A DNA stretch of 35,306 bases from a virus (Duplodnaviria > Heunggongvirae > Uroviricota > Caudoviricetes), in the IMG/VR virus record IMGVR_UViG_2541046997_000001, positions 1 through 35,306 of that record, one strand, 5' to 3'. Both the position numbers and the translations under genes were made by a program. The notes beneath the pieces are model-generated. The model ran no database searches. It saw nothing but the letters and a program-made list of their open reading frames with translations, and was not told the DNA's origin. Below, piece after piece: positions 14,795 to 33,591 of this stretch; within the stretch, counting starts at the first letter, position 1; the number at the start of each line of letters is the position of its first letter.

Positions 14795-14826
14795 TAAAAG
14801 AGCCAAGGCACATGACCTCGACTCTA
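14795..14826 (-). terminator. Intrinsic terminator just upstream of the Dit gene
   Basis: Minus-strand RNA reads AGAGUCGAGG-ucaugug-CCUUGGCUCU-UUUAUU. Confidence 0.6.
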
Positions 14827-14851
14827 TTAATCTTATATTTTTAAATATAAA

Positions 14852-14880
14852 TTGACAAAATGTAGTTTAATTGATATATT
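14852..14880 (+). promoter_or_regulatory. SigA-type promoter of moron 1
   Basis: TTGACA-17 nt-TATATT with TG at the extended -10 position. Confidence 0.75.
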
Positions 14881-14990
14881 ATGAATTGGCATTATCTAAT
14901 ACGGTAAGGACGGTTGTCTTCCACCAGAGAGCACAAGCTCTGTTCTTATAGAAACCTGTTTAGGAATCTTATGGAAAGGAGGACTTTTAC

Positions 14991-15137
14991 ATGGATTTAG
15001 CATTACAAGATTTATACTATATAGTGGGAATTTTTAGTTTGTCTATAAATATATCATATACGGTATATAAATTTGTAAAAGATAAAAGACATGAAAAAAG
15101 TAACTGTCCTCAGCCTGAGAAACTGAACAGTTACTAA
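14991..15137 (+). CDS. Small membrane peptide (48 aa), type I toxin-like
   Basis: MDLALQDLYYIVGIFSLSINISYTVYKFVKDKRHEKSNCPQPEKLNSY; not in the ORF track. AGGAGG RBS. The 5' leader pairs with the 3' trailer, and an antisense terminator overlaps the 3' end. Confidence 0.65.
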   Translation: MDLALQDLYYIVGIFSLSINISYTVYKFVKDKRHEKSNCPQPEKLNSY

Positions 15138-15605
15138 TTTCGTGTAACACATAGATTTCAGGGCAACCGTCATTGCTAACGATAATGCCATTTTATGTAC
15201 ATAAAAGTACACTAATTACAATATATAGTATTAATCGTTTTCACGATTCTAAATTCTGTAACCGCCATGAGTAAGCGGCTATTTATGCGTTAATAAAATT
15301 TTCATTTATTAGCCTTAAATGTCCAATAAAAGGCTCAACCGTCTATAGGATTCTGTTCTTTCCAACTAAACAAATTATATGATTAATCATTAAATGATTT
15401 ACTTCTTTTACTTACGATTATATTAGATTATTTTCTAATTGTAAATACATAGGCACTAAAAAGATGAAATAAAAAGTTATATTTGTATAAAATGCTATTT
15501 CTTCTTTTTAATGTCTATTTTTTTTGTTATATATTTTATGCAAATTTATTTATGGTTATGCTGACAGCCAGATTCGAATCAATCATTCTCTGACTGTCAG
15601 TAGTA

Positions 15606-17007
15606 TTACAGTTTCTTATGCATTCCTAATCTATGTGCTTCCTGTGTAAAATATTTTGTTACCTCTTGAATAACTTTTTTAATGCCTGGATATGTATCTT
15701 TATCAATACTTCCTTCGACATTAATTAAGTTATCATAGTGCTGATTAATAGTAGTTCCTTTGCCAGTATCTTCTCTGACATTTCTTCGGAGAGATGCTTC
15801 CATAATCGCATTTTTATTTTCAGCAAGACTAAAGAGATTGTCTGTTAGCTTCTTAGGAACAATAGCATCACCATATTCAAATGTTGCATAATTGTCACTT
15901 CCACGCTTTATCCTAAGTTCTTTACCAACTTCATCAATTCTTGCAAGTTCAATTGCATTTGTGATTTTCTTCGTTCCTTTAGCATAACCACTAATCTGAT
16001 CTTGTCTTACCCAACCAAGGTCACTGTAAAATCCAGGAGTTGATTGAGTACCTAGATGGATAGGGTATGGACTGTTTGGATTCATATATGTGATATATAA
16101 TTCCTCACCAAGATGTTGATTTCCAACCGGGTTTGTTCCGTATGAGTCATTGAAATACATTCCACTATTGAATCTAACTTTATCACCGACTCTTGGAATA
16201 CCATCTCCTCCACCAGTATTATTTTGCTGAGGCGGTTGTGGTTTAGGTGGTTCTGGTTTCTTTGTGACTGTAACTCCGACTGATACGCTTAATCCACTTC
16301 CATCAGTAGTAGATGCTGTTACTTGAGCAGCTCCTGGTTTGATAGCACGGATTGTTCCGCCACTAACAGTAGCAACTCGTGTATTAGAAGATTTCCAAGA
16401 AAGCTTTTTATTTTTTGCATCAGTAGGTCGTATACTTGCAGTAATAGAAGTAGACTGACCTTCTTCTAACGATACTGACGATTTATTAAGTTTCAATTCG
16501 GCAACAGGTCGATTGGATGTATTCGGAGCCTGTCCAATAATTCCTTCGATTCTATCATTGTTACTTTGTGCTGATCCACTTTGGATAGCGCCAGTGTTTA
16601 CATTTGTAAAATCATTTGGTTTATAATTAGGGGCAGTAGTAATACTTCCGTGTACTTGATTTTGTGCACCTCCCGCTGTTCCAAGGTTTCCAATGTTAGA
16701 ATTAAAATCACCACTTGGTTTAAATCCTGTGCCGGCAATAATACTTTGAATTTTGTCATAGGCTTGCTGATAATTATTAACAACATTTCCCAACATCTGA
16801 GAAATAACTTGTTCTTGTTTTTCGGCATTGTATGTGACTTCATTTAAAGTATCTTCAAGCGACTGATTTAAGTCCTCAGAAAGTCCTTCATATCCGTCTT
16901 TTCTAACTTCATACTCATGATCTTTCTGTGTCTGTTGCAATTGATCCTGAGCCTCTGCTAATTGAGCTTCTAATCTCTTTTTCTCTGCTTTTGCTGCTTC
17001 ATTATTT
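15606..17007 (-). CDS. Tape measure protein, exon 4 (C-terminal), with an Ig-like (Big_2) domain, Pro-rich linker and SH3-like segment
   Basis: The frame stays open upstream of the ORF call to 17007. Splicing gives ...AALDGV|NNEAAKAEKKRLEAQ. Big_2 motif 'LKLNKSSVSLEEGQS..LSWKSSNTRVATV'. Confidence 0.85.
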
Positions 17008-17146
17008 CATTACCTTCACATAGTTCGCTACACTATGCAGTTCTTTTATGAACTTCTCTGGGATTTCCCCAGAAGTTGAGACTATACCTTCTATCTAATT
17101 CTCTCACACAAAAATAGAGCAGATAATATTACCATCCGCCCTACAT

Positions 17147-17695
17147 TTAATCTGTTAATTCTAATACATATAATTCGCATTTTTCATTATAAGAATCACC
17201 GACAGCCTTTTGTGTTTCGTCATTCGCTTTTTTAAATCCTAATGAATTATAGAATCGTATTCCTTGTTCATTGTCTGATTCTACAAATACAATTATGCCA
17301 TATATTGCAATAATCTTACTAACTTCTTTTATTTTAGGTATGATATAGTCATAAAATAAAACCTTACCTAAACCATTCCCTTGAAAATCAAAATCTACAG
17401 CAATTCTGGCAATTTCCACAACGGGTAGTGCCATATACTCATTTGTATATACATCAAACGTATGAATTGCATTGGCTTTGATTGTATAAAAGGCAAGTAT
17501 ACATGTTTTTTCATTATCCATTAAGATATATGTGTGACCTTGTTTCTCCTCGGAATAATCAAATGCATCATCTGATAAAAAAGTATTTAAAGGATTATCT
17601 GCGCCACAGCAAAAATCACCCACTAACATAAAGTGTTTTAATGATTCTTTATCTAAAAATTCCTCTTTATACTGTAAAAGTTCCGTATTACCCAT
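17147..17695 (-). CDS. GNAT-family acetyltransferase, putative toxin, inside intron C
   Basis: Motifs 'FCCG..PLNTFL' and 'LPVVEIARIAVDFDFQGNGLGKVL..GIRFYNSLGF'. The ATG at 17695 overlaps the end of the upstream small ORF. Confidence 0.85.
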   Translation of the reverse strand: MGNTELLQYKEEFLDKESLKHFMLVGDFCCGADNPLNTFLSDDAFDYSEEKQGHTYILMDNEKTCILAFYTIKANAIHTFDVYTNEYMALPVVEIARIAVDFDFQGNGLGKVLFYDYIIPKIKEVSKIIAIYGIIVFVESDNEQGIRFYNSLGFKKANDETQKAVGDSYNEKCELYVLELTD

Positions 17696-17891
17696 TACGT
17701 TTTCCTTTAAGTATTTCGGAAATTTTAGTATTAGTTTTTTTTCGTTGTTCATCTGTAAATGGCTTCAACTTACTACTTTTAAAATCTTGAATAATTTTTG
17801 TAGCAGCATCACCTTTTAATAATGGTACAACCGCCATTGAAACTGCCATATGCTTTGCCTCCTCTTTTGTATCAGGTCGATTATCGTTCAT
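17688..17891 (-). CDS. Small protein coupled to the GNAT, putative antitoxin
   Basis: 67 aa with GGAGG RBS; a second possible start at MAVSMAVV. Overlaps the GNAT start. Confidence 0.65.
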   Translation of the reverse strand: MNDNRPDTKEEAKHMAVSMAVVPLLKGDAATKIIQDFKSSKLKPFTDEQRKKTNTKISEILKGKRNG

Positions 17892-18336
17892 TTTATAATT
17901 CCTCCAATAAAAGAATTATAAAATATCTAACCTTATAAATAAGTCGAATCAAAATAGTTTCTATATTTATATTACAATATAATAAGAGAGTTTACAATAT
18001 TATGCAATACTAAAATTAATTTTTAAATTAGATAGTCTATATTTTTCGAGTTACCAATCGCTTGTAACCCTATGCCTACATATTATAATATATAGGACTT
18101 ACCAGTCGTTGAGCGTCTTCCATATCATAATTATATATGACTTAGGATGTTCGTTGCGTCTGGGTGACTTGCACACCCGGTTATCCCTAACCTATCTGTT
18201 TTTTATGGTTTCTATCCGTAGACTGTTGAGTTATAAACTCGCACCGCATTCACGTTTACCGTTTCCAGTTCCGTTGTAGCAAGATAGGGTTGTGGGGACT
18301 TTCCCGCTATTAAATAGAAGTCGCGCAAATAACTTC

Positions 18337-20132
18337 ACGCCATCTAAAGCAGCAATTTGTGCTTTTAACACATTAATGTCTTTTGTCTGTTTCTTAAGAT
18401 TACGAGAATAATCATCGTTCTTTTTTTTGATATCAAGCAGTTTGTCATACTTTTCGATTGATTTCTGAACCATATCATTTTCTGCTTCTAACTGCTTACG
18501 ATATAAGTCAACAATTTCATTCTTGTAATCTTCAACAACACCAACAGAATCCCTAATAGAATCTAGGAAATCCTTTTGTTGTTCTTTATATTCACTTGTT
18601 GAAATGTTTCCGTTCTTTAAATCTTCATCAAGTTTCTTTAATGCCTCATTGTAGTTTTTGATCTGCTGTTTTGCAGCATTCATACCTTGAGATATAAGTG
18701 CGAGATTAGTAATGCCTTCAATGGTTAATCCGCCACTTTGTCCAACAAATGCATCTGAATGAAGCATACTTCTAAAATCATCGGTTTCTGTGATCAAGTC
18801 TTTTAAGGCTTCTTGTCCTTCAAAGAATGGTTCCCATCTGACTTCCCAGATTTTATTTTTGAGTTCTTCAATATTTTCACTTGCATTGTAAATCTCATCG
18901 TCAAGTTTAGCAATTTCATCTGCAATTTCCTGATACCGCTTAGAACCAACATCATACAATCCTTGTTCTTTTACCAGTTCTTGTCTTTTGTTAAAGTTTG
19001 CCTGAATTAAAGCATTGGCATTGTCAAGTTGTTTCTTGAGATCAGCTTCACTGACTTTATCTCCTTTGGCTTCTGTGAGACTTGTTCCATTTTCTAATCT
19101 CTGTGCAGTACGATCAAGCATATCAATGGTATGTTGTAATCGTGTAAGCTTCAGATTTCGTAATTCGTCTTCAAGTTCCACTAAACCGATTTGTGCATCA
19201 ATAGCAGATTCTTTCAACTCATTAAGTTTTGCCTGTGCTTCATACCATTCCTTAGATCCTTGGGACATGTATCCTTGCGACATAAGTTTAGATATTTCTG
19301 CTTCGTAATCCTTAATTTGCTGTTGTGTACTTTCTGCCAATTCTTGCTGATTTTTAATTGACTCCTTAATAGAAGATTCCTGTTCTTTACCATAAGCAGA
19401 ATGACCAAGTTCTTCCCAAAGTTCACGCTGTTTCTCAAGATAGCCGTTGGCTGTATCTTGCTGATTATTCATCATTTCCCAATATTCTTCAACATTGTCA
19501 AGAGCCTGTTGAACTAATTCATCCTGTTTTTCAAGGAGTTCATCGTACTGGGAATTACAGTCTTCCAATTTATCATAGTAATCTTGATAAATTTGAATCA
19601 GTTTTTTCGTTTCTTCGTCATATCCAGAAATATCAAATGAGCCATTTTTGATTTGATTATAGATCAGTGGATCAAGTCCCATCTGAGATTCTAAACCTGT
19701 AAGATGATCACGATATTTATTGATAGCAGTTGCAGTATTAGAAAGATATTCTTGATTCTTTGCTAAAGCTTCGTACATCTTAATCTGTTTGTCTGGAAGT
19801 TTAGCAATACGTTCCATTTGACTCATCAGATGGTCAAACTGGCGTTCCATTGCCTTAAATACACGTTCAATCCAGTCAATCTGATCAGAAAGTGATTCGG
19901 ATAATTTTTCAGCCGCTTCGGATGTATCTGTTGCTGCTTTTGAAAGATTATCTGCAGCATTGTTTACAGAAGAAGAGGTGTTGTTATATGATCCTCCTCC
20001 TGACAAATTTCCACTACCAGTATTACCTGTTGTCCAGCTTCCAGAAGAAAATGCAGTTCCATTGGAAAGAGCATGTCCCCGACCTCCGCCAGATGTTACC
20101 TTTCCATTTGCAAATAATTCCGCTGTTTGTTT
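18337..20132 (-). CDS. Tape measure protein, exon 3
   Basis: Open frame from 20132 (KQTAELFANG...) through the helical 'DWIERVFKAMERQ' region to AALDG. Confidence 0.88.
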
Positions 20133-21594
20133 CGTTTTATTTTTTATAATTCGCTACATTATAAAGAGTATAAAAATACTCCTCACATTTTCATGTGAGA
20201 CTAGACTATATCTTTATGTAATTAGTTATTTTATTGTGTAAAATATGTATCAAGTATTTTGTCTATATATTTATAATTACGGTATGTAATTTCAATTAAT
20301 TTTATATCATTCTTAATACAATAATTTTTTTTGATTTTATCATGATTTTTTCGTATAATAAAATCTTCATATCCTCCAAAATATTTAATTGGACTAAAAT
20401 GTTGTAATCCTTGATATTCTATACAAATATTGTGATCTGGTAAATAAAAATCAAATGGAAGTGAAAGCTTGTCTTTACAATTATCAAAACGATGTTCTTG
20501 ATTGTAATTAATATTAAGTTTTGATAAATATTTTCGTATGTTATATTCTCCCAAACTTTCTTTTCTACTACATTTACGACAACATGCATTTTCATGTCTT
20601 GTAAATTGAAACAAGGAAGTAGTGTATGGTTTGTTACATTTTGGACACACAACTATTAGATTATTTACTTCCCATCCTTTGTATTCATTTTTATTTAATA
20701 ACTTACCGCCAAAAGCTGCAATTCGTTCTTCTACTTCATTTGGAGACAACATTAAATTTTTACTATTTTCTTCATTTTGACATTTTGAACATCCGTGTTG
20801 TGATACTAACGCATAAATTTTTGTTTCAAATACACCATGTTTCTTACATTCATATTTAACAATACTATCACTATTTTTAATTTCATCTTTTTGTGTTAAT
20901 AAGGTATATCCTTTTTTATTACAAAAATCTAATGCCCTAGTATATAATGAAAGTTGACGTTCTTTTAAGTTATATTCAGAAGTTTTTCTTTGTCTACATT
21001 TCTTGCAAGAATATTTATCGTATTTATATTTAAAATAATCTCTCCATTCAACTTTTACAATTTTCCCACAATAATCACATTTAACATTTACTTTTAAATG
21101 TGAGCCACTAGGTAAATCTTCTGGTTTTACAAACAAAGATTCTCTCATCTTTGTAAATACATATCCTTTTGAAATCAAATGTTTTTTATTTGAACAAGAC
21201 CATTTTGACTCTATTAATTGATTTTCTACTAATATTTTTTCACCTTCTTGTTTATATATTTTTTTTACACAATAAAAATCACGCAAAACTGCGTGATAAA
21301 AATAACTATAAATAATTTACATATTTACCTTTTCGGACTGCCAATAACTTGCACTCCTACTCCCTTATGGGATAGTCGTTGAACCTTATCCTGTTCGGAT
21401 CTTGGCTGCTGATTGCCCATTAAAAAAGAGCAGGGGATTTAACCTCGCTCTCATACAAATAATTTTTTCTGTTTTCACAACCTTCACGTTTGAGTATATT
21501 TCATCTCTACGTTGTGGTTTATTTGTCTTTAGGGTTTTCCAGCAATTAGATAAATTTTTTCATACATATCACTATGTAAGACCACTATAAATTT
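20133..21594 (-). ncRNA. Group I intron B (1462 nt, IA-like with P7.1/P7.2) in TMP
   Basis: P1 ACCAU/GUGGU with U.G. P element AAUUGCUGGAAA, Q element AAUCAGCAG, R element GUUCAACGACUA, S element AAGAUAUAGUC. P3 AUUUAUCU/AGGUAAAU. Terminal G at 20133. Splicing gives in-frame DIVFNH|KQTAELF. Confidence 0.95.
20231..21286 (-). CDS. Intron-encoded putative homing endonuclease: CxxC zinc repeats plus a Vsr/DUF559-like nuclease domain
   Basis: Lies in the P8 loop of intron B. Several CxxC pairs. C-terminal 'ESLGE..LPFDFYLPDHNICIEYQGLQHF..DKIKKNYC'. Start codon uncertain. Confidence 0.8.
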   Translation of the reverse strand: MRDFYCVKKIYKQEGEKILVENQLIESKWSCSNKKHLISKGYVFTKMRESLFVKPEDLPSGSHLKVNVKCDYCGKIVKVEWRDYFKYKYDKYSCKKCRQRKTSEYNLKERQLSLYTRALDFCNKKGYTLLTQKDEIKNSDSIVKYECKKHGVFETKIYALVSQHGCSKCQNEENSKNLMLSPNEVEERIAAFGGKLLNKNEYKGWEVNNLIVVCPKCNKPYTTSLFQFTRHENACCRKCSRKESLGEYNIRKYLSKLNINYNQEHRFDNCKDKLSLPFDFYLPDHNICIEYQGLQHFSPIKYFGGYEDFIIRKNHDKIKKNYCIKNDIKLIEITYRNYKYIDKILDTYFTQ

Positions 21595-24500
21595 ATGGTT
21601 GAAGACAATGTCGCCCTTCTTTAGTGGAACAAATTGTGCTCCGCCTTCGATTAAGTGCCAACGTCCATCTCTAACAATTAACTCATTTCCAAGCTCATTT
21701 ACAAGAGAAGTTTGATTTTTAGAAACGCCCCAGTCACCACTTGCGTTCGCGTTACCAGAGTAGTGATACAAATTAGTAGTCCCATTTGCGTTGGCGGTTC
21801 CATTTGCCCCGGCTCCATCTCCCTTGACATTGTTTGTAACAGAAGTAATATATACAGTTTTACTTTGCACAGAAGAGATAGCAGAAGCAAGAGCTGATAC
21901 ATCCCCCGTTCCAGATGTAGTGGCAGATACAGTTACAGATTTGCTTTGTACAGAATCAATAGCTGCTTTTAATGCTTTTACCAAATCCGTTCCAGTTACA
22001 TTTGCTTTTGCATCAACAGTTTTTCCTTCAAGCGTTCCTAACGAAGCCTTTAATGCTCCGATGAGTTCCAAACCTGTAACATTTGCCATTACAGATACAG
22101 ATTTCGCTTCATTACTCAATCCATTTATGGAAGATTTTATTCCGTCAAGTTCATCTTTTCCAGATACACTTATTGAAACCGCCAATTCTCTATCATCAAG
22201 AGAAGACAGCATGGTTTCTAAAGCAGTAATGTCATCTTTTCCGGCAACGTTCACAGTTATGGTTACATCTTTGTCCTGTATATCTTCAAGATGTAAGTCT
22301 TCTTTTGTTTCAAGCCCAACGGGTATTTTAATCTCGTCAGACATTAATTGAGATGCAATCTCATCAGGACTTAATCCTTCAATATTTAATTCTGCCTTAA
22401 TCTCTGGCGAAATATTTGCAAGCTCAGATTTTGCAGTTTCTACCTTGCTTAATGCTTCATCAAGTTTACTCGTATCGACATTAGGTGTAGATGCAACTAT
22501 ATCTGCATTTGTAACAGCATCATAATAATTCTGGAACAGTTGAACTGCATTTTGTAGTTCCGCACTTGCATTACTTGTATCAACACTTAAAACAGCAGGC
22601 TCATTTAACTCTGCACGTTTCTGAATCAAAGTAGAAAGAACTTGCTGTGCAGATTCTAATTGAGAAGCATCACAATTAATTGAACCATCAGAGTTATATA
22701 AAGAATTAATATACTCTTTTGTTTTTTCAATTTCATTATATATAGAAGAATCTGTCTTAGCATTTACATTAATATCAACTTTCCCACCAGTAGCTTCTTT
22801 AATTGCGTCTGCTGCTAGAGTAGCTTTGGCAATAGCTTCGTCTAAAGTACCTGTTTCTACTGACACAGATGAAGGATTTTCCAGAAGTTTTTTACGTTCT
22901 ATAGCTTCTTCAAGTAATGTATTTAGATTTTCGACTTCTGCACTATCAACACCAAATTTAGTTTCTGACTCATCACGCGCTTTCGTTAATTCTGCGATTC
23001 GAGCATCTAATCCTTCCGCATCTAGCTTAGAGGTATCTACATCTAAATCAATTTCCGGGAAATCAGATCCAGCTTCTTTTAACTGTTGAAGATTGGTTTT
23101 TGCTTTTTCAGCTTGAGCAGATAAGTCAGCTATTTTCTGAGCATAATTAGAATCGCCACTCGTATCTCCAACACGAATAGTATCATCATATTCGGTCATT
23201 GCGCGATATAATGTTTGAACAGCTTCCTTACTAATATTTAACCTTTTTGCAATTTCTTCATCTGCTCCAGTTTGAAATTCAAGAACACCATTTTCTAACT
23301 CTTTTACCCATCCCAATCCTTCATTATCAGAAAGAGTTTTCATATCTGTAACAAAATTGTCAAGACCTTGCTTGGTTCCGGTAAAGTATTTATCAATTAC
23401 AGGGAGAGACGATTCATATGCGGCAACAACTTCTTTCATGGAAGCAGTAGCTAAATCTTGGTTAGAATAGAATTGTGATATAGCTCTAAATTCCTCGGTG
23501 TTATATCGACCTTCTTTATAGAGTTCTTTACCACGCTCACGCATCGTTTCAGAAACTGTACGGAACATATCGCCTTCTTCACCATTAGATTGAGCAGACA
23601 TCCATTTTTGGTAAGCAGAGGTTGCACCATCATAGGCGGCTGATAATTGATTTACTGCTTCAAGCTGGCGACTTAATCCGTCTATAACAAGTTGAGAATT
23701 ATTATATTCAGAAGAACCTTTGTCATAATTATTCTGTTCTGCATATGCTTTATTCAACTGCTCTTGAAGTGATTGTTGTTTTTCTGCAAACTTCCCTTTT
23801 GTTATAGCTTCTTGTTGTGCTTGTAACTGGCGTAAAGCTTCTCTGTTTAGATGAACGCCATTTGCGGTTTTTTCAAATAACGTTGCAGGATCATAACCTT
23901 CCAAATCTTCATATGCGGAGGCTATTGCACCAATATCGCCTTCAAGTTCTCCTGTTTCTTCATTGAGAGAAACACCTAGCCCTTTGCCAGTATAACTATT
24001 TGCTAATACAGCATTTAAAGATTCTACAGAATTAATTTGTGATACAACATCTTTCTGAAAATCAGAAAAACTTTCTTCAAGTTTAGTTAGACCAGTATCT
24101 TGACTAGCAAGTGCTGAAATTTCTTCTCTGAGTGTTTCAACGCTGACACCTGCTTCATTACAGGCAGCAACTAATTCAGGAAACCCCTTGGTAATTTCAT
24201 CAACAGACAATTTGTCTCCACTTCTAAAAGCGTCTACTAATTTCTGTTGCGCTTGAGCAAAATCATTATTTTCCCAAATTTTAGATAATGCTTTAGCTGC
24301 TTTGGCTTGAGGATTTTCCCTGGTATAATCATCAATCACTTTTGTGATATCATTGAATTTCTTTAATTCTTTTGAAGACAATCCTTCTTTAGCAGCACCC
24401 GTTGTTTCATCCATGAAATTCTTTCTAAGATCTTGAAGAGTTTTCATGTTTTCGGAAACAGCGTCTTCATACATTTTCATATCTGACTTAAGAGTTTCTA

Positions 24501-25476
24501 TTTCTCCATCAATTTCAGATTTTCTCTTTTTATCTTTTTTTGAAGTTCCTAAGCCATCACGTTCTTTTAAAAGTTCTTCTCTTGTATCTTTTAACTCATT
24601 TAAAGCTTTAACTTCGTTTTGAGTAGCTGTTAGAATATCTGTTTTTTCATATCCAGTGTTTTCTACTCCTTGTGTAGCATTTGCACCTGCAGCCATTCGA
24701 TCAATCCAGTTATCAGACTCTAATAGTTTCTGTTGAGATGATTTTGTTGTTAAGTCATAAGTTTCTCTTTTGTTTAGAGAATCCATTGCAGAGCCGACAG
24801 CTTCTTTAGCTTCTTTATCTGCAATTTCTTTCTTTAAATCTCTCTGACGTTCTAGTTCAGCATTTTGTAATTTCAGTTGTGAAAGTTCAGATTGCTCTAC
24901 AAGATTTAAAGTTCCTTTAGATTCAAGTTCTGAAATTCTTGTAGATGTTGTTTCTATTTCAGAATTTAAAGATTTTACTTCTGCCATTGTAGAAGCGTAA
25001 GCTGATTGCGCTTCTTTTGCTTCCTCAACAGATCTCTTCATTTCAGTAGCTTTTAGGTACGCTAACAATGCCGCACCACCAATAACAGCACCACCAGCGA
25101 TGTAAGGACCTGCTTTCTTAAATACACTCAACAATCCTTTTCCGGCATTCTTGAATCCTTGCATAGCTTTCTGCCCGGTAGTCATTCCATCGCCAAGACC
25201 GTCTAGTGTTTTCTTAAGTTCACTTACACCTTCGGCTGCATCGCCAGCCCCTTCGAGAATATCACCAAGTTGATCTTTCCAGTGAGTGGCTTTTAATGCA
25301 TCTTTTGCAAAACTTTTTGAAACACCAGAATGTTTAAGAATCTTTTCAACTTCTTCTAAATCTTTTGCATTGTCTAAAACATTTTTAAACTTATCAAACT
25401 TTTTAAAATCCGTTATATCGGATAAACCATTAAACTCATCAAACAGATCGGAATATTCCCCTATTTCTTTTAATGA
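21595..25476 (-). CDS. Tape measure protein, exon 2
   Basis: The frame is open for 97 codons between the proposed splice site and the ATG at 25185 (SLKEIGEYSDLF...), with no ATG/GTG/TTG in that stretch. Helical TMP composition ending 'LVNELGNELIVRDG..KGDIVFNH'. Confidence 0.8.
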
Positions 25477-25481
25477 CTGTG

Positions 25482-25490
25482 TGGTATAAT
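25482..25490 (+). promoter_or_regulatory. Extended -10 promoter for the plus-strand cargo genes
   Basis: TGgTATAAT about 50 nt upstream of the ATG at 25539, which has an AAGGAG RBS. Confidence 0.65.
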
Positions 25491-25538
25491 ATAAAAAATG
25501 TTTCTATCATTTATTATATATTTAAGGAGATGAATTTA

Positions 25539-26021
25539 ATGGCATTATTATGTTGTCATGAATGTAAAAATAAAGTTTCTGATAAAGCTGAGACATGTCC
25601 TCATTGTGGATGTCCAATAGTTATTGATAAAAACAAAGAAAGAAAATATTCTAAAGTGAATGGGATTACTTATGATGTAACCGAACTTGTCGATTTGATT
25701 CTTAATCGTAAAACAATTGATGACGATAATGAAGTAAGTGATATTATAAGGAAGACAATGGATATTTCCCCAGTTAAGTTTACTTTACCTACGGTAGAAC
25801 TTGGGAGAGCGCCGGAAGAAATTAACTGTGAAACATTATCCGACTTCTCAAAAAGACAACGAGTCATCCAAGCATCAAAAATTCATTGTCCAAACTGTAG
25901 GTCAACAGATGTAAAACGCATATCTGCAACCGAGAGAGCAGCATCTGTTATTGGACTTGGGTTGCTTTCCAAGAAGATAAATAAAACATACAAGTGTAAT
26001 AAATGTAAGTATACTTGGTAG
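25539..26021 (+). CDS. Zinc-ribbon protein (N- and C-terminal CxxC pairs), intron A cargo
   Basis: 'MALLCCHECKNKVSDKAETCPHCGCP' and 'CPNCRSTDVKRIS..KTYKCNKCKYTW'. AAGGAG RBS. Confidence 0.8.
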   Translation: MALLCCHECKNKVSDKAETCPHCGCPIVIDKNKERKYSKVNGITYDVTELVDLILNRKTIDDDNEVSDIIRKTMDISPVKFTLPTVELGRAPEEINCETLSDFSKRQRVIQASKIHCPNCRSTDVKRISATERAASVIGLGLLSKKINKTYKCNKCKYTW

Positions 26022-26087
26022 TGGTATAGTATAAATACAATAACTGCAGAATTTTAGTTATAATAATGAAATGAGAGGTAAATATAA

Positions 26088-26618
26088 ATGTTAGTAGTAT
26101 GTCCTGAGTGCAAAAACGAGGTAAGCCAATATGCAGAATCGTGTCCAAACTGTGGATTCCCAATTATTAAATTTATGAAAGATAGCAATTTAACAGATAC
26201 CGAAAAAGTTGAAATTTGTCCTAAATGTGGCAGATTCAGCGAAGGAACACCGTATTATTTAAAATGTGATTATTGTGGAAGTACAATGGCACAAACTGAT
26301 TTAACAATGGACGAATGGATATCCGTATTGATGAAAAAGGATGCTTTTTCTTTTGTCGAAGATATGGCTAATAAATATGGTAATAATCAATTTTCAGAAG
26401 AAATGTTTAATACGCGTATGGGGCACAATCACTCAAACAGTCATACAAGTGAGCAGAAAAAAGAAGAAACTAACATCCCTAAATGTCCCACTTGTGGAAG
26501 TACAAAAATACGTAAAATTTCTGGAACTAAAAGAGCTGCTTCGATACTTGGGTTTGGTATCTTGAGTAATAACATTGGGAAAACATATGAATGTTTAAAT
26601 TGTAAATACAAATGGTAG
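26088..26618 (+). CDS. Zinc-ribbon protein, paralog of 25539..26021
   Basis: 'CPECKNEVSQYAESCPNCGFP' and 'PKCPTCGSTKIRKIS..KTYECLNCKYKW'. GAGG RBS. Confidence 0.85.
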   Translation: MLVVCPECKNEVSQYAESCPNCGFPIIKFMKDSNLTDTEKVEICPKCGRFSEGTPYYLKCDYCGSTMAQTDLTMDEWISVLMKKDAFSFVEDMANKYGNNQFSEEMFNTRMGHNHSNSHTSEQKKEETNIPKCPTCGSTKIRKISGTKRAASILGFGILSNNIGKTYECLNCKYKW

Positions 26619-26622
26619 TAGC

Positions 26623-27321
26623 ATGGTGGAGACAAAATTACGCTGGTTAGAATACTGTAAAGAAATTAAAAACATCCCGCCAATACAAGAGATAAAGCTT
26701 CTTGATAAAAATGATTCATCACACGCAAGATTTAAATCAATAGATTTGTATAATCAAAAATATATCTTATATGTTCAAAAGGAGATATATGAATATACGG
26801 AGGTTTCGACAAGATCTATATTATTTCATGAATTTACTCATCTTGCGGACTCAATAAAATATAGAGATAAAAAATATGAAGTATTCCTTAATATAATGGC
26901 TTCTTACTCAGAATATCATGCAGCATATATCGAAATGATTCAAATTATCAAAAGCTGCAATAGTAAATTAGTAAACAAGGAATCAGAGGTTATTTACAGA
27001 GCCGGCTGTCTTACTTTAGAATCCCTTATGTCTCAATCATACACAGCAGCGATAAAATGTTTTGAAAAAATTGATGGGTCTTTTGGATTACATGAGTTTT
27101 TTTATTATTTAGGATATAGAAAAGCTTTACAAAAATATAATTTGGAATTTGATTTTAATTTCTTGGATTTCAATCCGTTATATATGATTTATATTAAAAA
27201 TATTTCTGATTATGTGGAATCTAATGATATTCCCAAAATGGCTGATGAGCACTCAAAATTATTACACTCTATTGATATGGAGATAGAATCAAATAAAATT
27301 TTGAATCATTTTAATATTTAA
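26623..27321 (+). CDS. HExxH putative zinc metallopeptidase
   Basis: 'ILFHEFTHLAD' followed by 'SEYHA' as a candidate third ligand. Starts 4 nt after the upstream stop. Confidence 0.7.
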   Translation: MVETKLRWLEYCKEIKNIPPIQEIKLLDKNDSSHARFKSIDLYNQKYILYVQKEIYEYTEVSTRSILFHEFTHLADSIKYRDKKYEVFLNIMASYSEYHAAYIEMIQIIKSCNSKLVNKESEVIYRAGCLTLESLMSQSYTAAIKCFEKIDGSFGLHEFFYYLGYRKALQKYNLEFDFNFLDFNPLYMIYIKNISDYVESNDIPKMADEHSKLLHSIDMEIESNKILNHFNI

Positions 27322-27423
27322 AAACTGTTGTTTTCTTATGTTGCTACTTGGCTCTGCCAGACAAAGCTGCAGACATCAATGACAACGACAAAGATCAAGA
27401 GGAGGAGAAGAACAGCGGCTATC

Positions 27424-27594
27424 TTATAACTCCACATTGCCCAAAATTTTTTCTTTAAACTTTTTTATAATTGAATAACATTCAGATTGGTTTACATCAG
27501 TGCCGCAATATAGCGTGTTGATTAAACACTTTACAATATAATTTTCTTTTTCTTCACGCTGTAAATAATTATCAACGAAATTATTGTCAAACAT
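27424..27594 (-). CDS. Small hypothetical protein (56 aa)
   Basis: GAGGTG RBS before MFDNNFVDNY. Lies back-to-back with 27626..28060. Confidence 0.5.
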   Translation of the reverse strand: MFDNNFVDNYLQREEKENYIVKCLINTLYCGTDVNQSECYSIIKKFKEKILGNVEL

Positions 27595-27625
27595 ATTAAC
27601 ACCTCGATTCTGAAAGGAGATTACC

Positions 27626-28060
27626 ATGAAATTAAATCCAGATTGTATTAGAGATGTATTACTCTATTTAGAAGCTGAATTAGAAGTAGACTTGGAAAAA
27701 CAAAATTTTACAAGAATTAGTCTTAAACAGATAAAAGAACATTTTGAAAATATTTATTTTGAAGAAGATATTTGGTATACAGTGTACAATCTTCGTGAAA
27801 TGAGATATATTTCTGGAAACTTGGGTGACGCCGGAAGGAGATTAATGATGTTTTGTGAAATAGACAATATAACTCCATATGGACACCAGTTTTTAAATAC
27901 TATAAGACCAAAGTCTATTTGGGACGCAACAAAATCAGGAGCGTCTAAGATAGGTATAACTTCTCTATCTGCATTAAGCACAATAGCAATGGAAATAACA
28001 AAATCAGTTGTAACGAGAAAAGACGTTATAGATGAAATTGTATCTCTAATAAAATTTTAA
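27626..28060 (+). CDS. DUF2513-like protein
   Basis: 'MKLNPDCIRDVLLYLE..ITPYGHQFLNTIR..IWDATK' is the family pattern. AAGGAG RBS. Confidence 0.8.
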   Translation: MKLNPDCIRDVLLYLEAELEVDLEKQNFTRISLKQIKEHFENIYFEEDIWYTVYNLREMRYISGNLGDAGRRLMMFCEIDNITPYGHQFLNTIRPKSIWDATKSGASKIGITSLSALSTIAMEITKSVVTRKDVIDEIVSLIKF

Positions 28061-28142
28061 CAGCACAAGAAATAATAATATCATTAATACAAAAATCTCG
28101 TTTGAATATCTAATATTTTACCGAGTATTGTTTTCAAGCACA

Positions 28143-28172
28143 AAAATAGAGCAGTAGTAGTTACTGCTCTTG
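28143..28172. terminator. Hairpin terminator between the convergent DUF2513 and type III toxin genes
   Basis: AGAGCAGTA-gtagt-TACTGCTCT with a U-tract on the minus strand. Confidence 0.65.
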
Positions 28173-28655
28173 ATTTATATTTAATTCTTTGTGAAAATAT
28201 TTTAATGTAGACATTCCATACTTTCTTTTAAAATCCATTTTTGGCAAAGTAATTTCATTATTCATGTGCAATACATATTCATCTACATACTTAAGAGAAT
28301 CTTCAACTATTTTTGATATAAATCTTTTTGTCTTCATATATTCATCTCTATCAATCATTGCAGGTTCGGACGAAACAAAGTTATGATTTTTGATAATCAC
28401 TATTTTACTATAGTCAAGTCCTGAATTATGTTTATTTGATCGTTTTGTATTTTGAAATTTAAAAGCATATTTATGATGAATTTCACTTCTATATGGTATA
28501 CAAACGAAATAATCATAATGTGTCTGAATTAATAAACAATTATACCCTCTATTTTTCTTTTTTAACAATTCTGGATATTCTTTTGATGGATAATTATCAT
28601 AAAAGGCTTCTGTTAATTTCAATATCTGAAAATCAAAAATATTTTCTTCTTCCAT
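28161..28655 (-). CDS. tenpN: Type III toxin-antitoxin endoribonuclease toxin, TenpN-like
   Basis: 'RGYNCLLIQTHYDYFVCIPYRSEI..SGLDYSKIVII'. Preceded by a promoter, tandem repeats and a terminator, the canonical type III layout. Confidence 0.85.
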   Translation of the reverse strand: MEEENIFDFQILKLTEAFYDNYPSKEYPELLKKKNRGYNCLLIQTHYDYFVCIPYRSEIHHKYAFKFQNTKRSNKHNSGLDYSKIVIIKNHNFVSSEPAMIDRDEYMKTKRFISKIVEDSLKYVDEYVLHMNNEITLPKMDFKRKYGMSTLKYFHKELNINQEQ

Positions 28656-28669
28656 TATTTCTCCTTAGT

Positions 28670-28695
28670 AAAAAAGAGAGGAATACCCTCTCTTA
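28670..28695 (-). terminator. Terminator between the antitoxin repeats and the toxin gene
   Basis: AAGAGAGG-GUAUU-CCUCUCUU-UUUU. Confidence 0.85.
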
Positions 28696-28702
28696 ATATA
28701 CT

Positions 28703-28863
28703 TCATCACTCGGTTACATTTTATTTTATCGATGTGTCAGAACCGTCACACATCATCATCACTCGGTTACATTTTATTTTATCGATGTGTCAGAACCGTC
28801 ACGCATCATCATCACTCGGTTACATTTTATTTTACCGTCCTGTCAGAACCGTCACAGGACTCA
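28703..28863 (-). ncRNA. tenpI: Type III antitoxin RNA (TenpI-like): three tandem ~53-nt pseudoknot repeats
   Basis: Units start at 28703, 28756 and 28809. Stem GAUGUG/CACAUC (GUCCUG/CAGGAC in one unit). Loop CGGUU pairs the downstream AACCG. Confidence 0.88.
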
Positions 28864-28904
28864 TATGTGATGAATTGAGAAAACACTGTGGTCTTCTTAT
28901 TTAT

Positions 28905-28933
28905 ATTATATCCAACAATCGGAGAAAAGTCTA
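28905..28933 (-). promoter_or_regulatory. Promoter of the type III TA operon
   Basis: TAGACT-17 nt-TATAAT. Confidence 0.75.
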
Positions 28934-29000
28934 CTAAAAATATAGCTAATAAAACAAGATGAATTTATGCAAAATATACAAATAGAGCAGTGGTTAGTAT

Positions 29001-29165
29001 CTATCGTATAATTCCACAAATTTTCTTATCACCAGATAAAACATCTATTGACCAGTTTATAGGAATAATATCTTTTAACGCTTCTTCGGAAGAAACGATT
29101 TTTAATTTTCTTCCGGATAATTTAGAAAAATCTAATCGTCTTTTTTTCTTCTCAACCATATACAT
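29001..29165 (-). CDS. Small hypothetical protein (54 aa)
   Basis: MYMVEKKKRRLDFSKLSGRKLKIVSSEEALKDIIPINWS... AAGGGA RBS. Not in the ORF track. Confidence 0.55.
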   Translation of the reverse strand: MYMVEKKKRRLDFSKLSGRKLKIVSSEEALKDIIPINWSIDVLSGDKKICGIIR

Positions 29166-29185
29166 ATTTGTCCCTTCTATAAAAA

Positions 29186-29773
29186 TTAACTATACACAAT
29201 TTCAATTCTATCAAAGTCTTTCGTGTTTAACACAATAAGCTCTTTCGGATTATTAGAATTGTCGATTATAACATTTGCTTCCTCGTCCAATTTTTGATAC
29301 ATCGTTAACGCAATTATTGGTTCATCTTTGTTTGATTGACCATATTTATATAATCCAAGATATGACTTTCCGTCTTTTAAAAATACTCTTACCCATGTAT
29401 TATCTTTGAAAATATCCATCCAAAAATCGTCATTAGTTGTGCGGTAAATATGTAATTTTAACAAAAGATTATTGAATGCTGTTGAATGGCATAATTCACC
29501 TAAAATTACTCCTAATAACAAACCAATAATTGTGAGTAAAATAATACGCTGGTCTGGTAAAATAATGATCTTGGCTTTCTTCAAAATAAAATCAAATACA
29601 ATACCAAGAATATAGCTTGCAGCAACGCTTTTGATAATTAAATTGTTAAAATTTTTATGATCTACAAAAGATACCCAATAATAAGTGGATAAAAAAATAT
29701 ATCCAGGAATTACAAAAGATAATATGTATGGTATATTATCTATAAGATCAATTATCCAATTTATACTTATCAC
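29186..29773 (-). CDS. Membrane protein, DUF6338-like
   Basis: Three hydrophobic segments, with 'FVIPGYIF' and 'DDFW..WVRVFLKDGKSYLG'. Confidence 0.7.
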   Translation of the reverse strand: MISINWIIDLIDNIPYILSFVIPGYIFLSTYYWVSFVDHKNFNNLIIKSVAASYILGIVFDFILKKAKIIILPDQRIILLTIIGLLLGVILGELCHSTAFNNLLLKLHIYRTTNDDFWMDIFKDNTWVRVFLKDGKSYLGLYKYGQSNKDEPIIALTMYQKLDEEANVIIDNSNNPKELIVLNTKDFDRIEIVYS

Positions 29774-29919
29774 CTCTGATTTTCATTATTGTTTTGAGAT
29801 TCAGATTGTCTTACCGGAGGGGTAGTGTTTTCCGTTGTAGAATTCCTCTGATAACTTGAAATCTCAAAAACGGGATTATTTGTATTTTGGTTTCTTTTTG
29901 TTTCATCTTCTGTTCCCAT
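29770..29919 (-). CDS. Small hydrophilic peptide (49 aa) coupled to the membrane protein
   Basis: AAGGAG RBS. MGTEDETKRNQ...; the TGA overlaps the next GTG (GTGA). Confidence 0.6.
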   Translation of the reverse strand: MGTEDETKRNQNTNNPVFEISSYQRNSTTENTTPPVRQSESQNNNENQR

Positions 29920-29981
29920 ATTTATTCTCCTTTTCTAAACTTATATTTATTATAACTCGTACTAGAATAGAAGAGTAGTCG

Positions 29982-29993
29982 GAACATGTGTTT
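29982..29993. promoter_or_regulatory. LexA (Cheo-box)-like site upstream of the intron A cargo promoter
   Basis: GAAC-ATGT-GTTT, one mismatch to GAAC-N4-GTTC. Minus-strand TATAAT at 29949-29954. Confidence 0.5.
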
Positions 29994-30635
29994 TGTTTTT
30001 GTGTAAATTTTCTCATATCACTGGAACCAAACAGCATTAGAGATTTGCTGCTAGAAAATAATCCGAAGATTATATTGGTTACGGCACTCCAGATTTTGCC
30101 GGAAGTTTTAAAAGCATATATCTATGCCACACATGGTACTGACAGTCTATGTTAAGTCAGATTGCCAGTAACGTATTACTAAAACTTTTCTAAATCGCAA
30201 TACGCACTATGCCTTAAAAGAAGAATAGCATTTATGGCAGTTATTCTCTCCGAGGATGGGTATGTCTCTGGGGATACTATCTGTTAATGACCTTCATTAT
30301 ATACGCCAAAAGAATTAACTCAGATATTGTCCTGCTCGTTGTCCTTTATATTCTTACTTAGATGTCTTAACATTTTCATATTAATATTCATATAAGAACA
30401 AATCATTTATTTGGGTTTCCCTACCTACTGTTATGGGTATGATTTGCAAAATAAGATTTCAAGCATTTACTCCTCTATGGGTCAAAACCATAATAAATAT
30501 ATGGAACTCACCATGCTCCGCCACTTGATATTACAATGCCATAATATTGTAAATCTTATGTCGGCTAGACTCATATATAATATAGGAATATTTTACTTAT
30601 TTTATTATATATGTAACCCTGTGTTTTATAGGTTA

Positions 30636-32576
30636 ATCTAAGTTTTTAAAAAATGCAAAAGCTCCTCCCCCAATTGAAAGCACTCCAAGTGGTGATACTG
30701 CTTTTACCAATCCGTCAAATCCTTTAACTAACTGATTAATTAGTTGAACTGCGGATGTAATTTGTCCTGCATCTGCAAAGTTTGAAATAAATTGTTGCCA
30801 AGAGTTAGAAAGTTGATTTAAGCTTCCTTTCCAGTTATTTGCTGACTTTTCTGCTTCAATGGCTGCACTACCTGATCCTTCAGAATAATCTTTTAGCATT
30901 TTGTCATAATCTTGCTGACCTGAAAGAATGGATGCGAGAACATTGGCATGATGTTTTTGACCGATATTATTTAAAATATCTGCTTTTTCGGTCGATCCGT
31001 CTGGTAAAGCATTATATACATCAGACAATTCTTTTAGTAATTCGATAGGTGTTTTTAAATATTCTGAATCCCCTACCATTTTTGTCATTGAAATCCCAAC
31101 ATTATCTAAAGTGCTTACAACTTTATCGTTGGAAGTATTTGTTAAGTTGACAAATAAGGCTTTTAATGCGGTTCCAATTTCGTTCCCCGATTTTTTTGTT
31201 CTCGAGACAGCTGTGCCGACCAAAGCGGATAATTCGTTTACAGAAACACCTGTTTGCGCCGCCATAGAACCTGCCTGAGTCGTAGCTTCTGCAAGATCTG
31301 TCATTGAAACGCTGTTCCTGTTACTTATCATATTTTGTCCGTCAAGTACATCGTTCAATTTCTGAGCAGAGCCTGCATATTCGTAAGCAGCATTAGTAGC
31401 CAGTAGATAACTATTAGCCGTGTCAGCATTCATATCACCGGCAGCTTGTGCCAACACTGACACATTTGCCATATCAACTCCCTGCTGTCCATAAAATCCG
31501 CTTCGGCTCATTTCTGTAACACCTTGTAAATAATCGGTTACAGTTTTACCATAATTACTTGCATATCCATAAGCATCTTGCCTTAACTGTTTTAGAGAAG
31601 AAGATGATAAATCAGATGTTTTAGAAATTTCAGTAAGAATGTCATCAACTTGTTTAAGCCGTTCAATTGATTGTGATATTGAGTCAATACCTCTTTCAAT
31701 CACGCCGTATGTAGTTGCAAACTGTGCGATTTGCTTAAAACCCCTACCCAACTCATTGAGTACAGATCGACCGGTGACTCCTTCGGCTTCTGCACGAGCT
31801 TTGACAAGAGCGACTTGTTTATTTAAATCATTTAATTGCCATTTACTAGTCGCCTCTTGTTGTAATTTTGCTAGTTGTTGCAATTCCTGACGGTACGCTT
31901 TTGTAAGCTTTGTATTTTTTTCTACAAATGAAATAGTTTTTTGACTTGCAATCAGACCTTCATTATGTTTTAATAATCCGCTTTGTGAATTCGCTGCAAT
32001 CTTAGTTTCGTTATTACATTTTTCAATTGCTTTCTGAAGCCTATTGTAATCTTCAATAACGTCACTAATATTGCTGTTACTTTTTAAATTAAAACTATCA
32101 TCAAAATTACCTTTGAGTTTCTCTGACAGATTATTTACATTTTTTAAAGATGACTCTAAATTTTTAAATTCACTACCATCTAAGCTATATTCAAGATTTT
32201 TAATTTGCTTACCTAAATTAGAAACGTCCAAATCTAATTTGCTTGTTGATAATTTTCTTTGAATACTTTGTATAGTTTGTTCTGTTTGTTTGGCGGCATT
32301 TGCCTGTGCTTTACTTAAATCAAAGTCAAAACTAATTTTATTTTTCTTATTACTAACAGACGATTGAAAACTACTTGAAAATTTTCTTCCAGCTGACGAC
32401 CCGGATCGTTCAATGTCCTTTATTAAATTGGGAATGCTAGAAGCATTAAATTTCGCATCATCTATTCCAAGTTTAATGGTGTGTTCTTTTGCCGTTAATT
32501 TGTCCAGCTTCGCCTGTGCAGCATCTAGCGCAGAATCCTGAACTTTTGCAACGACATCAACTTCGTATTGACTCAT
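30636..32576 (-). CDS. Tape measure protein, exon 1 (TP901-family core)
   Basis: GAAAGGAG RBS. 'VDDILTEISKTSD..EMSRSG..GNEIGTALK..GSAAIEAEKSANNWKGSLNQLSNSW'. The TAA that ends the ORF is the first codon of predicted intron A. Confidence 0.92.
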
Positions 32577-32607
32577 GTTTTATAAATCACTCCTTTCATT
32601 TTTGAGC

Positions 32608-32635
32608 AAAATAAAAGCCCTCATGAAAGAGAGCA
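32608..32635 (-). terminator. Intrinsic terminator-like hairpin directly upstream of the TMP start
   Basis: GCUCUC-uuucau-GAGGGC-UUUUAUUUU. Confidence 0.55.
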
Positions 32636-32924
32636 TCAGTAGAAAACTGTATTTATTTTTTGGAAATGTTTGATATAATGTAAATGGGTATATGTCGATT
32701 GGATCCACCACAGCCAATCCGTTGTCACGGGTATGTATCTGGCAGTCTGTCTTAATAAGCTCCTGTGGGAGCATACGCGATATGTATGCAAAATGATATA
32801 AATAGTGCATATGCACTAGAAAGTCGAAGGTATTATCTTATGCTTGAGCAATCGGCATTCTATATGAGGGTCTCTCATGAAAACTTCCTTTCTGGCACAT
32901 TATTGTACAGAAGGGAGGTGAAAT

Positions 32925-33095
32925 GTGACACAGATTATAATTTTAAGTTTACTTATAATATTGACAATTCTTGCAATTATTTTATTGGTTGTAGTTAAGA
33001 TGTTATTTAGCCGTAATATAAAAACTACACAATGTAATTTCAAGATTCTCAATTGGATTAAATTTAATTTCTCTGTTTCATATTTTAATGAATAA
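32925..33095 (+). CDS. Small membrane protein (56 aa), moron 2
   Basis: GTG start, MTQIIILSLLIILTILAIILLVVVKMLFSRNIK... The GGGAGG RBS lies within a 12-bp hairpin. Not in the ORF track. Confidence 0.65.
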   Translation: MTQIIILSLLIILTILAIILLVVVKMLFSRNIKTTQCNFKILNWIKFNFSVSYFNE

Positions 33096-33152
33096 TTCTT
33101 ATATATAACTTCTTCTTAATTTGTGTGTATCATCCATTATTTATCATCGTCA

Positions 33153-33184
33153 TTTTACCCGGAGAGTAGTATCTCCGGGGTTTT
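33153..33184. terminator. Bidirectional terminator-like hairpin
   Basis: CCCGGAGA-gtagta-TCTCCGGG-GTTTT between convergent genes. Confidence 0.65.
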
Positions 33185-33189
33185 CTATA

Positions 33190-33591
33190 TCACTTTAAGA
33201 ATTTCGCCATATTTCTGTCCACAATTTCCGGAATTGCATTTCTTGTTGCCTCAAAATATCTATGGTTCCCCAATGTATGTCCGATTGCCCCCGTTTCTGT
33301 CGCCTCAATTACTTGTGCACCTGTATACGTTCCAGTATGATAAGAAATACTTTCTTCCATTTCTGCTTTAAATTTAAACAAATTCCCTCCACCAGAAACA
33401 GGAGTAGTATTAGGCGATTCTAACAACGTTCCTGTTCTCTCGTATTTTACAGGGTTTCCAATATCATAATATCCCATTACATTATCTTCTAATTTTACTT
33501 TGACTTCATCTCTTGCAGCATTCATTCCTGCACGAACATCTTTTTCCATCAATTTTTTAACTTCCAAAAAACTAGATACTTTTTTTGCCAT
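33190..33591 (-). CDS. Hypothetical phage protein upstream of TMP
   Basis: 133-aa ORF with AGGTG RBS and a 'P.KYERTG.LL' motif. Function not assigned. Confidence 0.65.
   Translation of the reverse strand: MAKKVSSFLEVKKLMEKDVRAGMNAARDEVKVKLEDNVMGYYDIGNPVKYERTGTLLESPNTTPVSGGGNLFKFKAEMEESISYHTGTYTGAQVIEATETGAIGHTLGNHRYFEATRNAIPEIVDRNMAKFLK

Follow-up and report, generated by a model that had tools for sequence, protein, structure and literature searches.

The tape measure gene and its three introns

The window analysed here (35,306 nt) forms the first 35 kb of provirus record IMGVR_UViG_2541046997_000001, whose length is 164 kb. Our subject is its tape measure protein (TMP) gene, which lies upstream of the tail genes and is predicted to be spliced from four exons, and in particular the group I ribozyme of its largest intron, in which the P7 helix is interrupted. 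Joining the four exons, all on the minus strand, gave 9021 nt encoding 3006 amino acids with no internal stop codon. Exon 1 (30636-32576; 1941 nt, 647 amino acids, ending in FKNLD) has a strong ribosome-binding site, GAAAGGAG, upstream of its ATG and encodes a TP901-type tape measure domain (TIGR01760, 124.5 bits; PF10145; phrog_4211, E 9e-64). It is followed by exon 2 (21595-25476; 3882 nt, 1294 codons), exon 3 (18337-20132; 1796 nt) and exon 4 (15606-17007; 1402 nt), the last with a Big_2 Ig-like domain. The gaps between them, hereafter introns A, B and C, measure 5159, 1462 and 1329 nt, respectively, and the protein reads across them as FKNLD-SLKE (A), VFNH-KQTA (B) and ALDG-V-NNE (C, with the valine codon split as GT and A). 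An exon U precedes each of the three gaps, and G is the last base of each.

An initial annotation of this stretch had proposed the same exon lengths, single 9021-nt frame and three junctions, and all of these were reproduced exactly; its estimate that 7950 nt of introns occupy 47% of the locus was recomputed as 46.8%. It had also expected standard gene callers to report four unrelated open reading frames (ORFs). Exon 1 is readily recognised as a TMP by TIGR01760 alone, and callers would therefore not give four unrelated ORFs.

The spliced product was compared with 120 longer homologues of exon 1, those listed among 371 found. Alignments continued across junction B in 20 of them and across junction C in 25, mostly gapless (as in P0020 and P0019), and 34 crossed junction A, in a poorly conserved region where only P0001 was convincing (FVKNFK-ELAEIG). 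Uninterrupted homologues spanning the junctions are 2200-3200 amino acids long, and many TMPs in the databases terminate at the site of junction A. At the DNA level, intron B was absent at the exact base in all four near-identical phages and intron C in two of the four. In a third relative intron C carried another gene (CptN-like, at 62 bits under the cut-off), and in the fourth a different intron, with an endonuclease, took the place of C. Contig 17 of run X4 (16.7 kb) contained the C-less join at the same length, with 6 different letters, and we read it as an empty DNA allele rather than as splicing. The proposal of one TMP from four exons stands as a well-supported prediction, junction A included. 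It is of a known kind, multi-intron TMP genes as such having been described.

The gene has long noncoding flanks (14814-15605 and 32577-33190). In run X5, part of 15368-15562 was swapped for 833 other letters, making a second variable slot.

Intron B (20133-21594, minus strand) has a contiguous P7 (AC-GACU/UAGUCU), matched RF00028 above the cut-off (53 bits, E 3.5e-11), has an exact empty allele and contains a homing-endonuclease-like ORF of 351 amino acids (20231-21286, minus; phrog_559, E 1.8e-51; phrog_9084, E 2.8e-29). Intron C (17008-18336, minus) matched RF00028 only weakly (18.9 bits, below the cut-off); its group I core consists of a 4-bp P1, a 7-bp P10, P4 and a contiguous P7 (AC-GACU/UAGUCU), and it too has an exact empty allele. 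Over the whole window, Rfam gave no match at the gathering score, and at the E-value level it returned intron B alone. On these sequence features, B and C are ordinary, optional group I introns. The cargo of intron C (17147-17891, minus) is a 67-amino-acid ORF overlapping a GNAT acetyltransferase gene (17147-17752; PF00583, phrog_1758) in what looks like a toxin-antitoxin arrangement; PADLOC returned no match for it. A terminator-like hairpin in the sense direction is located at about 17143-17110.

Intron A and the interruption of its P7 helix

Intron A (25477-30635, minus strand) starts with UAACC and ends with CAG. Its ribozyme, at the 5' end, takes up about 540 nt, and the distance from the end of P7 to the terminal G is 4658 nt, most of it cargo. 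The P1 guide (30570-30565, GUCUAG) pairs with the exon end UUAGAU, leaving a U.G pair at the 5' splice site, and the adjacent P10 guide (30574-30571, AUGA) pairs with the start of exon 2, UCAU; both pairings show compensatory changes in relatives. Between these guides and P7, the core helices P3, P4, P6 and P8 follow in canonical order, with compensatory changes in alignments read by eye. The 5' strand of P3 is at 30475-30471 (GAGGA), the strands of P4 are at 30465-30460 and 30338-30333 (UGCUUG/CGAGCA) with a P5 extension between them, and J6/7 with the P7 5' strand, followed by the P3 3' strand, occupies 30252-30270 (CA-GA-GACAUAC, then UCCUC). A 7-bp P9.0 joins UGUGUGG (30127-30133) to CCACACA just before the terminal G (25477-25484).

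The intron A family was collected by pattern scans, of which the metagenome scan covered 11 of 64 parts. At least 173 regular-expression matches gave at least 160 locus records past the core filter, many of them the same contig twice, and at least 42 distinct cores; L154, a match without the hairpins described below, was dropped, leaving 41. All family counts given here are among the matches listed. For splice-site mapping, 159 records were used; the script found no 5' site in 29, and the rest represented 63 distinct introns. The script also mis-picked sites in L065, L092, L094, L098, L135, L143 and part of L170. All 63 introns follow a TMP motif like KNLD, KNFD or KNFA. Seven co-varying combinations of exon end and guide accounted for 61 of the 63: TTTGAT/GTCAAT (40 introns), TTAGAT/GTCTAG (10), TTAGAT/GTCTAA (4), TTTGCT/GGCTAA (4) and three single cases; the other two were mis-picks. 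When the best in-frame G was taken in the 53 introns with a long downstream frame, P10 reached at least 4 bp in 47 and at least 8 bp in 28. Because P1 and P10 co-vary with the exon ends, junction A is placed correctly at NLD-SLK. In the clade of the window (8 introns), a short P10 is accompanied by a P9.0 of 5-7 bp. Family introns range from 522 to 7530 nt (a value of 8152 was a mis-pick), the shortest being cargo-free forms of 522-523 nt (L014, L036 and L040). Five genomes with introns of this family are labelled Lachnospiraceae (4) or Bacillota (1). All four near relatives retain intron A at 4714-6746 nt, with the first 660 nt or so conserved and the cargo exchanged.

The initial annotation had missed the P7 of this intron. 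The P7 5' strand reads CA-XY-GACAUAC, where XY is GA, AC or CA, and is one A longer than the canonical strand. After P8 comes UAA(G/U)G(U/C)A-UAGU (UAAGGCA-UAGU at 30206-30216 in the window), like J8/7 and the beginning of the P7 3' strand in introns B and C; the two bases that should follow, C311 and N312 (numbered after the Tetrahymena intron), are missing at this place. Instead, two hairpins are found, HA (30205-30171, with a 9-bp base stem) and HB (30170-30137, 8 bp). Together they insert 69 nt without linker bases in all 41 cores, and the pairs of HA are 99.7% conserved as pairs, three of the nine having changed on both sides. Directly after HB lies the dinucleotide CC (30135-30136), whose bases pair with G30266 and G30268 and would supply the last two bases of P7. 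In the family this dinucleotide is CC, CU or CG. When it was picked from the pairing of hairpin B alone, blind to the 5' strand, 40 of the 41 cores showed a C together with the Watson-Crick complement of X, whereas positions shifted by 1-3 nt did so in 0-2 of 41; the sole miss, L211, gave CG with another picker.

Covariation was examined in 34 of the 41 cores, seven near-duplicates having been left out, with rows cut at the displaced dinucleotide (L211 by hand). The guanosine-binding pair with its bulged neighbour was found in every core, pair 264-311 being G-C in 34/34, and the flanking pair 262-312 co-varied as A-U in 15, G-C in 11 and C-G in 8. The covariation score was 0.327, compared with 0.157 for shuffled data, and none of 500 shuffles scored as high; slid controls were 9-42% paired. 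X, Y, 311 and 312 lie outside all search patterns but one, in which GA was fixed. A continuous P7 3' strand (UAGUCN in the consensus, as seen in B and C) was found in none of the 41 cores, and intron A was not filed under a described subgroup because of this discontinuity. The predicted split P7 is thus well supported by covariation as a new variant. Two earlier candidates, a P7 lacking the C of the guanosine site and a P7 paired with the 3' junction or made by a permuted core, were discarded once the displaced dinucleotide had been found.

An unsplit sister, L347, was recovered with model R1. It shares the start of the P1 hairpin, P3 and J8/7 with the family but has AC-GACUAC with a contiguous UAGU-CU; it lies upstream of a 1961-codon frame that is 38% identical to the TMP, and its position in the tree is unsure. 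R1 gave 2 matches in a sample of 151 genomes of one family, the seed and this sister, a count that describes the sample and does not speak for absence elsewhere. No match to the ribozyme was found among 50,697 GenBank phages.

According to the available text of PMC3679873, insertions have been described in P1, P2, P6, P8 and P9 of group I ribozymes. P7, which holds the guanosine site, is treated as the one group I helix without insertions. No title or abstract opening in our literature search dealt with an insertion inside P7 or with multi-gene cargo introns in TMP genes; figures and supplements were outside its scope and may bear on novelty.

Tests for other kinds of element were negative in intron A: a group II intron would have a GUGYG start, an AY end and domain V, whereas intron A has other ends and gave no Rfam group II match, and the window's intron contains no IS605/IS607 tnpA/tnpB ORF of the sort found in IStrons. 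An 8-nt stretch of the P5 region, ATCTAAGT, considered as a group II-like exon-binding site, was rejected: it is not kept in distant relatives, whereas the P1 guide co-varies.

Three further pairings were noticed in intron A. The P2 loop (30545-30536) is predicted to pair with the P8 loop (30240-30231), co-varying by eye, and GGCGGAG (30522-30516) with CUUCCG (30105-30099), both strands being present or absent together in relatives. A small hairpin with the loop AUAGAAA (25499-25515) lies just before the 3' end; it has a compensatory change in L004 and is absent in other clades.

Cargo and putative promoters and terminators of intron A

On the sense (minus) strand, the cargo of intron A begins with a 49-amino-acid ORF, a DUF6338 protein gene (29186-29773) and a 54-amino-acid ORF, together spanning 29001-29919. 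There follow a tandem repeat of 53 nt in 2.9 copies (28703-28856, minus; TRF score 273), which resembles an antitoxin-RNA array, a terminator-like hairpin (28694-28674, minus) and a gene for a TenpIN-family type III toxin of 164 amino acids (28161-28655, minus; NF047358, 162.8 bits against a cut-off of 90). This order of array, terminator and TenpN corresponds to the layout of a TenpIN type III toxin-antitoxin system, which we take as a prediction. Another terminator-like hairpin, at 28148-28170, is bidirectional, and beyond it the plus strand carries an antisense set (25473-28060) made up of two zinc-ribbon protein genes (25473-26021 and 26088-26618), one for a 232-amino-acid protein and one for a DUF2513 protein (27626-28060). 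The idea that each intron holds a different type of cargo was only partly borne out: the pair in A is a toxin-antitoxin of type III, and in C a small ORF precedes the GNAT gene, so the three are not all different.

PADLOC gave no convincing match for 12 cargo proteins of the window, and the ESM Atlas returned only unnamed zinc-ribbon clusters. Across 48 family introns, 171 ORFs of at least 80 amino acids fell into 67 clusters, and the antisense zinc-ribbon cluster was present in 41 of the 48. Among 42 cluster representatives scanned we found CptN (2), PemK-like (2), GmrSD, TIR, DUF3800 (3), Bro-N/KilAC, Spo0A_C and one TnpB; at E 1e-5, none of the 42 was a named homing endonuclease. The cargo differs even between near-identical phages. 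In near relatives the first 60 or so codons of exon 2 (25281-25460) are also swapped for sequence of similar length, which suggests recombination tracts reaching from the cargo island into the exon. At the other end, the match of contigs from X4 and X3 to the cargo-side flank breaks off at 30112, where they end or continue with different sequence; some relatives may carry this flank behind another ribozyme core.

The 3' end of intron A appears to double as a promoter for the antisense genes. In the window, a consensus match to an extended -10 promoter on the plus strand (TATAAT at 25486-25491) would serve the zinc-ribbon genes, and its TG motif coincides with the P9.0 strand. Judged by the same kind of match, 31 of 33 distinct ends have an exact antisense TATAAT at set distances ahead of the terminal G, compared with 6.8 expected, and in the AC clade the -35 TTG of the putative promoter is often the reverse of the first codon of exon 2. 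Sense TATAAT motifs near the 3' end occurred in 13 of the 33, at scattered places, compared with 7.0 expected.

Probable mode of splicing and comparison with known introns

We consider it likely that all three introns are spliced in cis out of a single long late transcript and that the P7 of the largest, split in the sequence, re-forms as a four-way junction, whereby its guanosine-binding G-C pair would be retained. As the sequence and its covariation show, the two splice sites of intron A are set by P1 and P10, and the displaced P7 bases pair across the 69 inserted bases. Because the four helices adjoin without a linker base, one half of P7 may be stacked on the other, and likewise HA on HB. 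With the whole core in the first 540 nt or so, the far end needs only the terminal G and either P10 (which in one clade reaches 8-10 bp) or the 7-bp P9.0 of the window's clade; so little being needed there, everything between is free to vary. Such an interior could act as a landing site for independently transcribed accessory and defence-like genes, and it may be kept since an essential gene would not tolerate the loss of its ribozyme bit by bit. The late transcript would have to read through intrinsic terminators in the cargo. Antitermination is known from phage late operons.

Several results weigh against this reading. Contigs from six runs (X1-X6; contigs only, just one run being on record as RNA) contained no join of exon 1 to exon 2, no exact intron-A-less allele was found among the four near relatives, and P0001 gives the sole convincing protein alignment around junction A. 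The covariation of P7 is less extensive than the number of cores suggests: in a tree built without the bases in question, the three pair types need two changes, so that it rests on two independent compensatory events rather than 34. The four inner pairs of P7 are invariant and partly contained in the search patterns, and for this reason they test nothing; a further point is the extra A of the 5' strand. The whole 611-nt region folded no better than shuffles (z -0.98), minimum-energy folding being uninformative here. RF00028 matched neither intron A nor its compact form, a miss that is not diagnostic because the unsplit sister L347 was missed too. Sense terminator-like hairpins occur in 41 of 45 cargo introns, compared with 1 of 45 after base shuffling, and in the window they are present in both A and C; read-through would therefore be required. 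In IStron constructs, according to the part of bioRxiv 2023.11.20.567912 available to us, larger cargo meant less splicing, of which almost none could be detected at about 1.2 kb.

Those terminators could also be accounted for by trans-splicing, in which a 5' RNA made of exon 1 and the ribozyme stops at a terminator or is cleaved within the cargo and uses P10 and P9.0 to bind a second RNA with the terminal G and exon 2. The precursor contains the array of a TenpN-type RNase, and toxins of type III cleave the repeat RNA of their own systems. The whole core of intron A does lie 5' of the cargo, and a long P10 or P9.0 is the kind of helix used in engineered 5'-replacement ribozymes (PMC6155759, in the text available). 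We nevertheless regard trans-splicing as unlikely, since a sense promoter for the second RNA was sought near the 3' ends and not found at any fixed place, in contrast to the antisense one; cargo-free forms that would splice in cis exist; and in intron C, where the cargo divides the core, a sense terminator is present as well, so that read-through is needed there anyway.

It is very unlikely that the RNA after exon 1 does not splice at all but has another role, with the TMP made as two polypeptides, one of 647 amino acids and a separately started C-terminal part. A stop codon right after exon 1, the aberrant P7, the lack of a spliced read, an ATG in exon 2 at 25185 and the many database TMPs that end at junction A would all fit. 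Against this, P10 co-varies with an exon 2 start thousands of bases away, always after G and in frame; the 97 codons before that ATG are open, and the ATG itself has no good ribosome-binding site; and the pair of the guanosine site is kept. Database proteins ending at junction A are what unspliced annotation is expected to produce. The initial annotation had suggested that partial splicing acts as a checkpoint or influences tail length. Three introns do interrupt an essential late gene, their retention would give products of 647, 1962 or 2574 amino acids, as had been foreseen in part, and the antisense promoter over the 3' splice site (31 of 33 ends) could in principle interfere. A regulated checkpoint, or several tail lengths, is nonetheless highly doubtful: B and C are simply missing in relatives with exons 88-98% identical, and each retained-intron product lacks the C terminus that uninterrupted homologues keep. 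Because of these two findings the idea is unsupported.

Splicing in cis remains the reading we prefer, and we hold it likely that intron A stands for a structural class of its own, new among group I ribozymes, with P7 formed across a four-way junction. That such a class should also splice naturally in trans, its self-contained 5' core joining separate exons, is improbable as a combination; if true, docking by P10 and P9.0 would be why intron A tolerates kilobases of terminator-containing, two-stranded defence cargo.

With the group I introns of RF00028, intron A shares the U.G pair of P1, P3, P4, P6, J6/7, the G-C guanosine pair, P8, J8/7, P10 and the terminal G; it differs in its discontinuous P7 3' strand, its extra A in the 5' strand and its failure to match. 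The lariat-capping ribozyme GIR1 is likewise a group I-derived RNA with a rearranged catalytic core, but in the portion of PMC3679873 at hand it lacks splice sites and carries out branching, whereas intron A keeps P1, P10 and the terminal G, and what rearranges its core is an inserted stretch in P7. Intron A is alike in layout to the IStrons of AT-rich Bacillota (CdiIStron and CboIStron; bioRxiv 10.1101/2023.11.20.567912), where, as far as its available text goes, a 5' group I core is followed by protein genes and a distant 3' splice site. There, the 3' end doubles as a guide RNA; here, it would double as an antisense promoter. IStrons are described in the same text as IA2 ribozymes with IS605/IS607 tnpA/tnpB that transpose to many sites. 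Intron A sits at a single TMP site, and neither a transposase nor TnpB occurs with it in the window; its cargo is varied and lies on both strands, and in one relative includes TnpB. The coral mitochondrial ND5-717 intron is comparable as an obligatory group I intron holding many unrelated genes, up to 19 kb (PMC6545197, from the accessible part). Phage introns are said to outgrow the subgroup scheme in PMC11878797, whose available text does not mention the tape measure, and that of bioRxiv 10.64898/2026.10.21.760802 contained nothing on these introns.

A natural split P7 with compensatory pairing would mean that a four-way junction can serve as the frame for a rebuilt active site, and the 523-nt form of the family offers a ready construct for splicing tests and structure determination. 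The family also points to introns that current models cannot score, and thousands of TMPs are probably annotated as truncated. For the phage, the arrangement would mean that toxin-antitoxin and other accessory genes of a large temperate virus are housed, as an island that changes quickly, within a structural gene it cannot do without.

Several group I introns in one TMP gene are known from Bacillus cereus-group prophages, where TMP-IVS1, IVS2 and IVS3a/b, of types IA1/IA2, occupy three sites (Tourasse and Kolsto 2008, PMC2504315). In the part of that paper available, they resemble the introns described here in being in frame, with a stop codon at or near the intron start, in their patchy presence and in having P1 and P10 adapted to the site, and B and C fit this kind. 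Unlike intron A, they have at most a homing endonuclease, and the text (figures aside) describes no multi-gene cargo or interrupted P7.

Further insertions were noted in and around related TMP genes. An intron 82% like intron C lies at another TMP position in L006 (16780-18054), with a different ORF. L003 (8796-10000) and L006 (8779-10000) have an extra insertion with an endonuclease-like ORF in exon 1, at TMP residue 417/418, which corresponds to about 31321-31326 of the window and is absent there; L015 has another at residue 545-550, which the window also lacks. Upstream of the gene and outside the window, a motif at G000:C1:37279 (minus), CAACGACUG, is like the P7 5' strand of B and C and possibly marks a further group I intron; the RF00028 search did not list this region. 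In L005 (11100-14950), the RNA found after this TMP region is another one, group I-like and closer to the canonical form; it too precedes cargo and an antisense zinc-ribbon gene, so that the site seems to attract several intron types.

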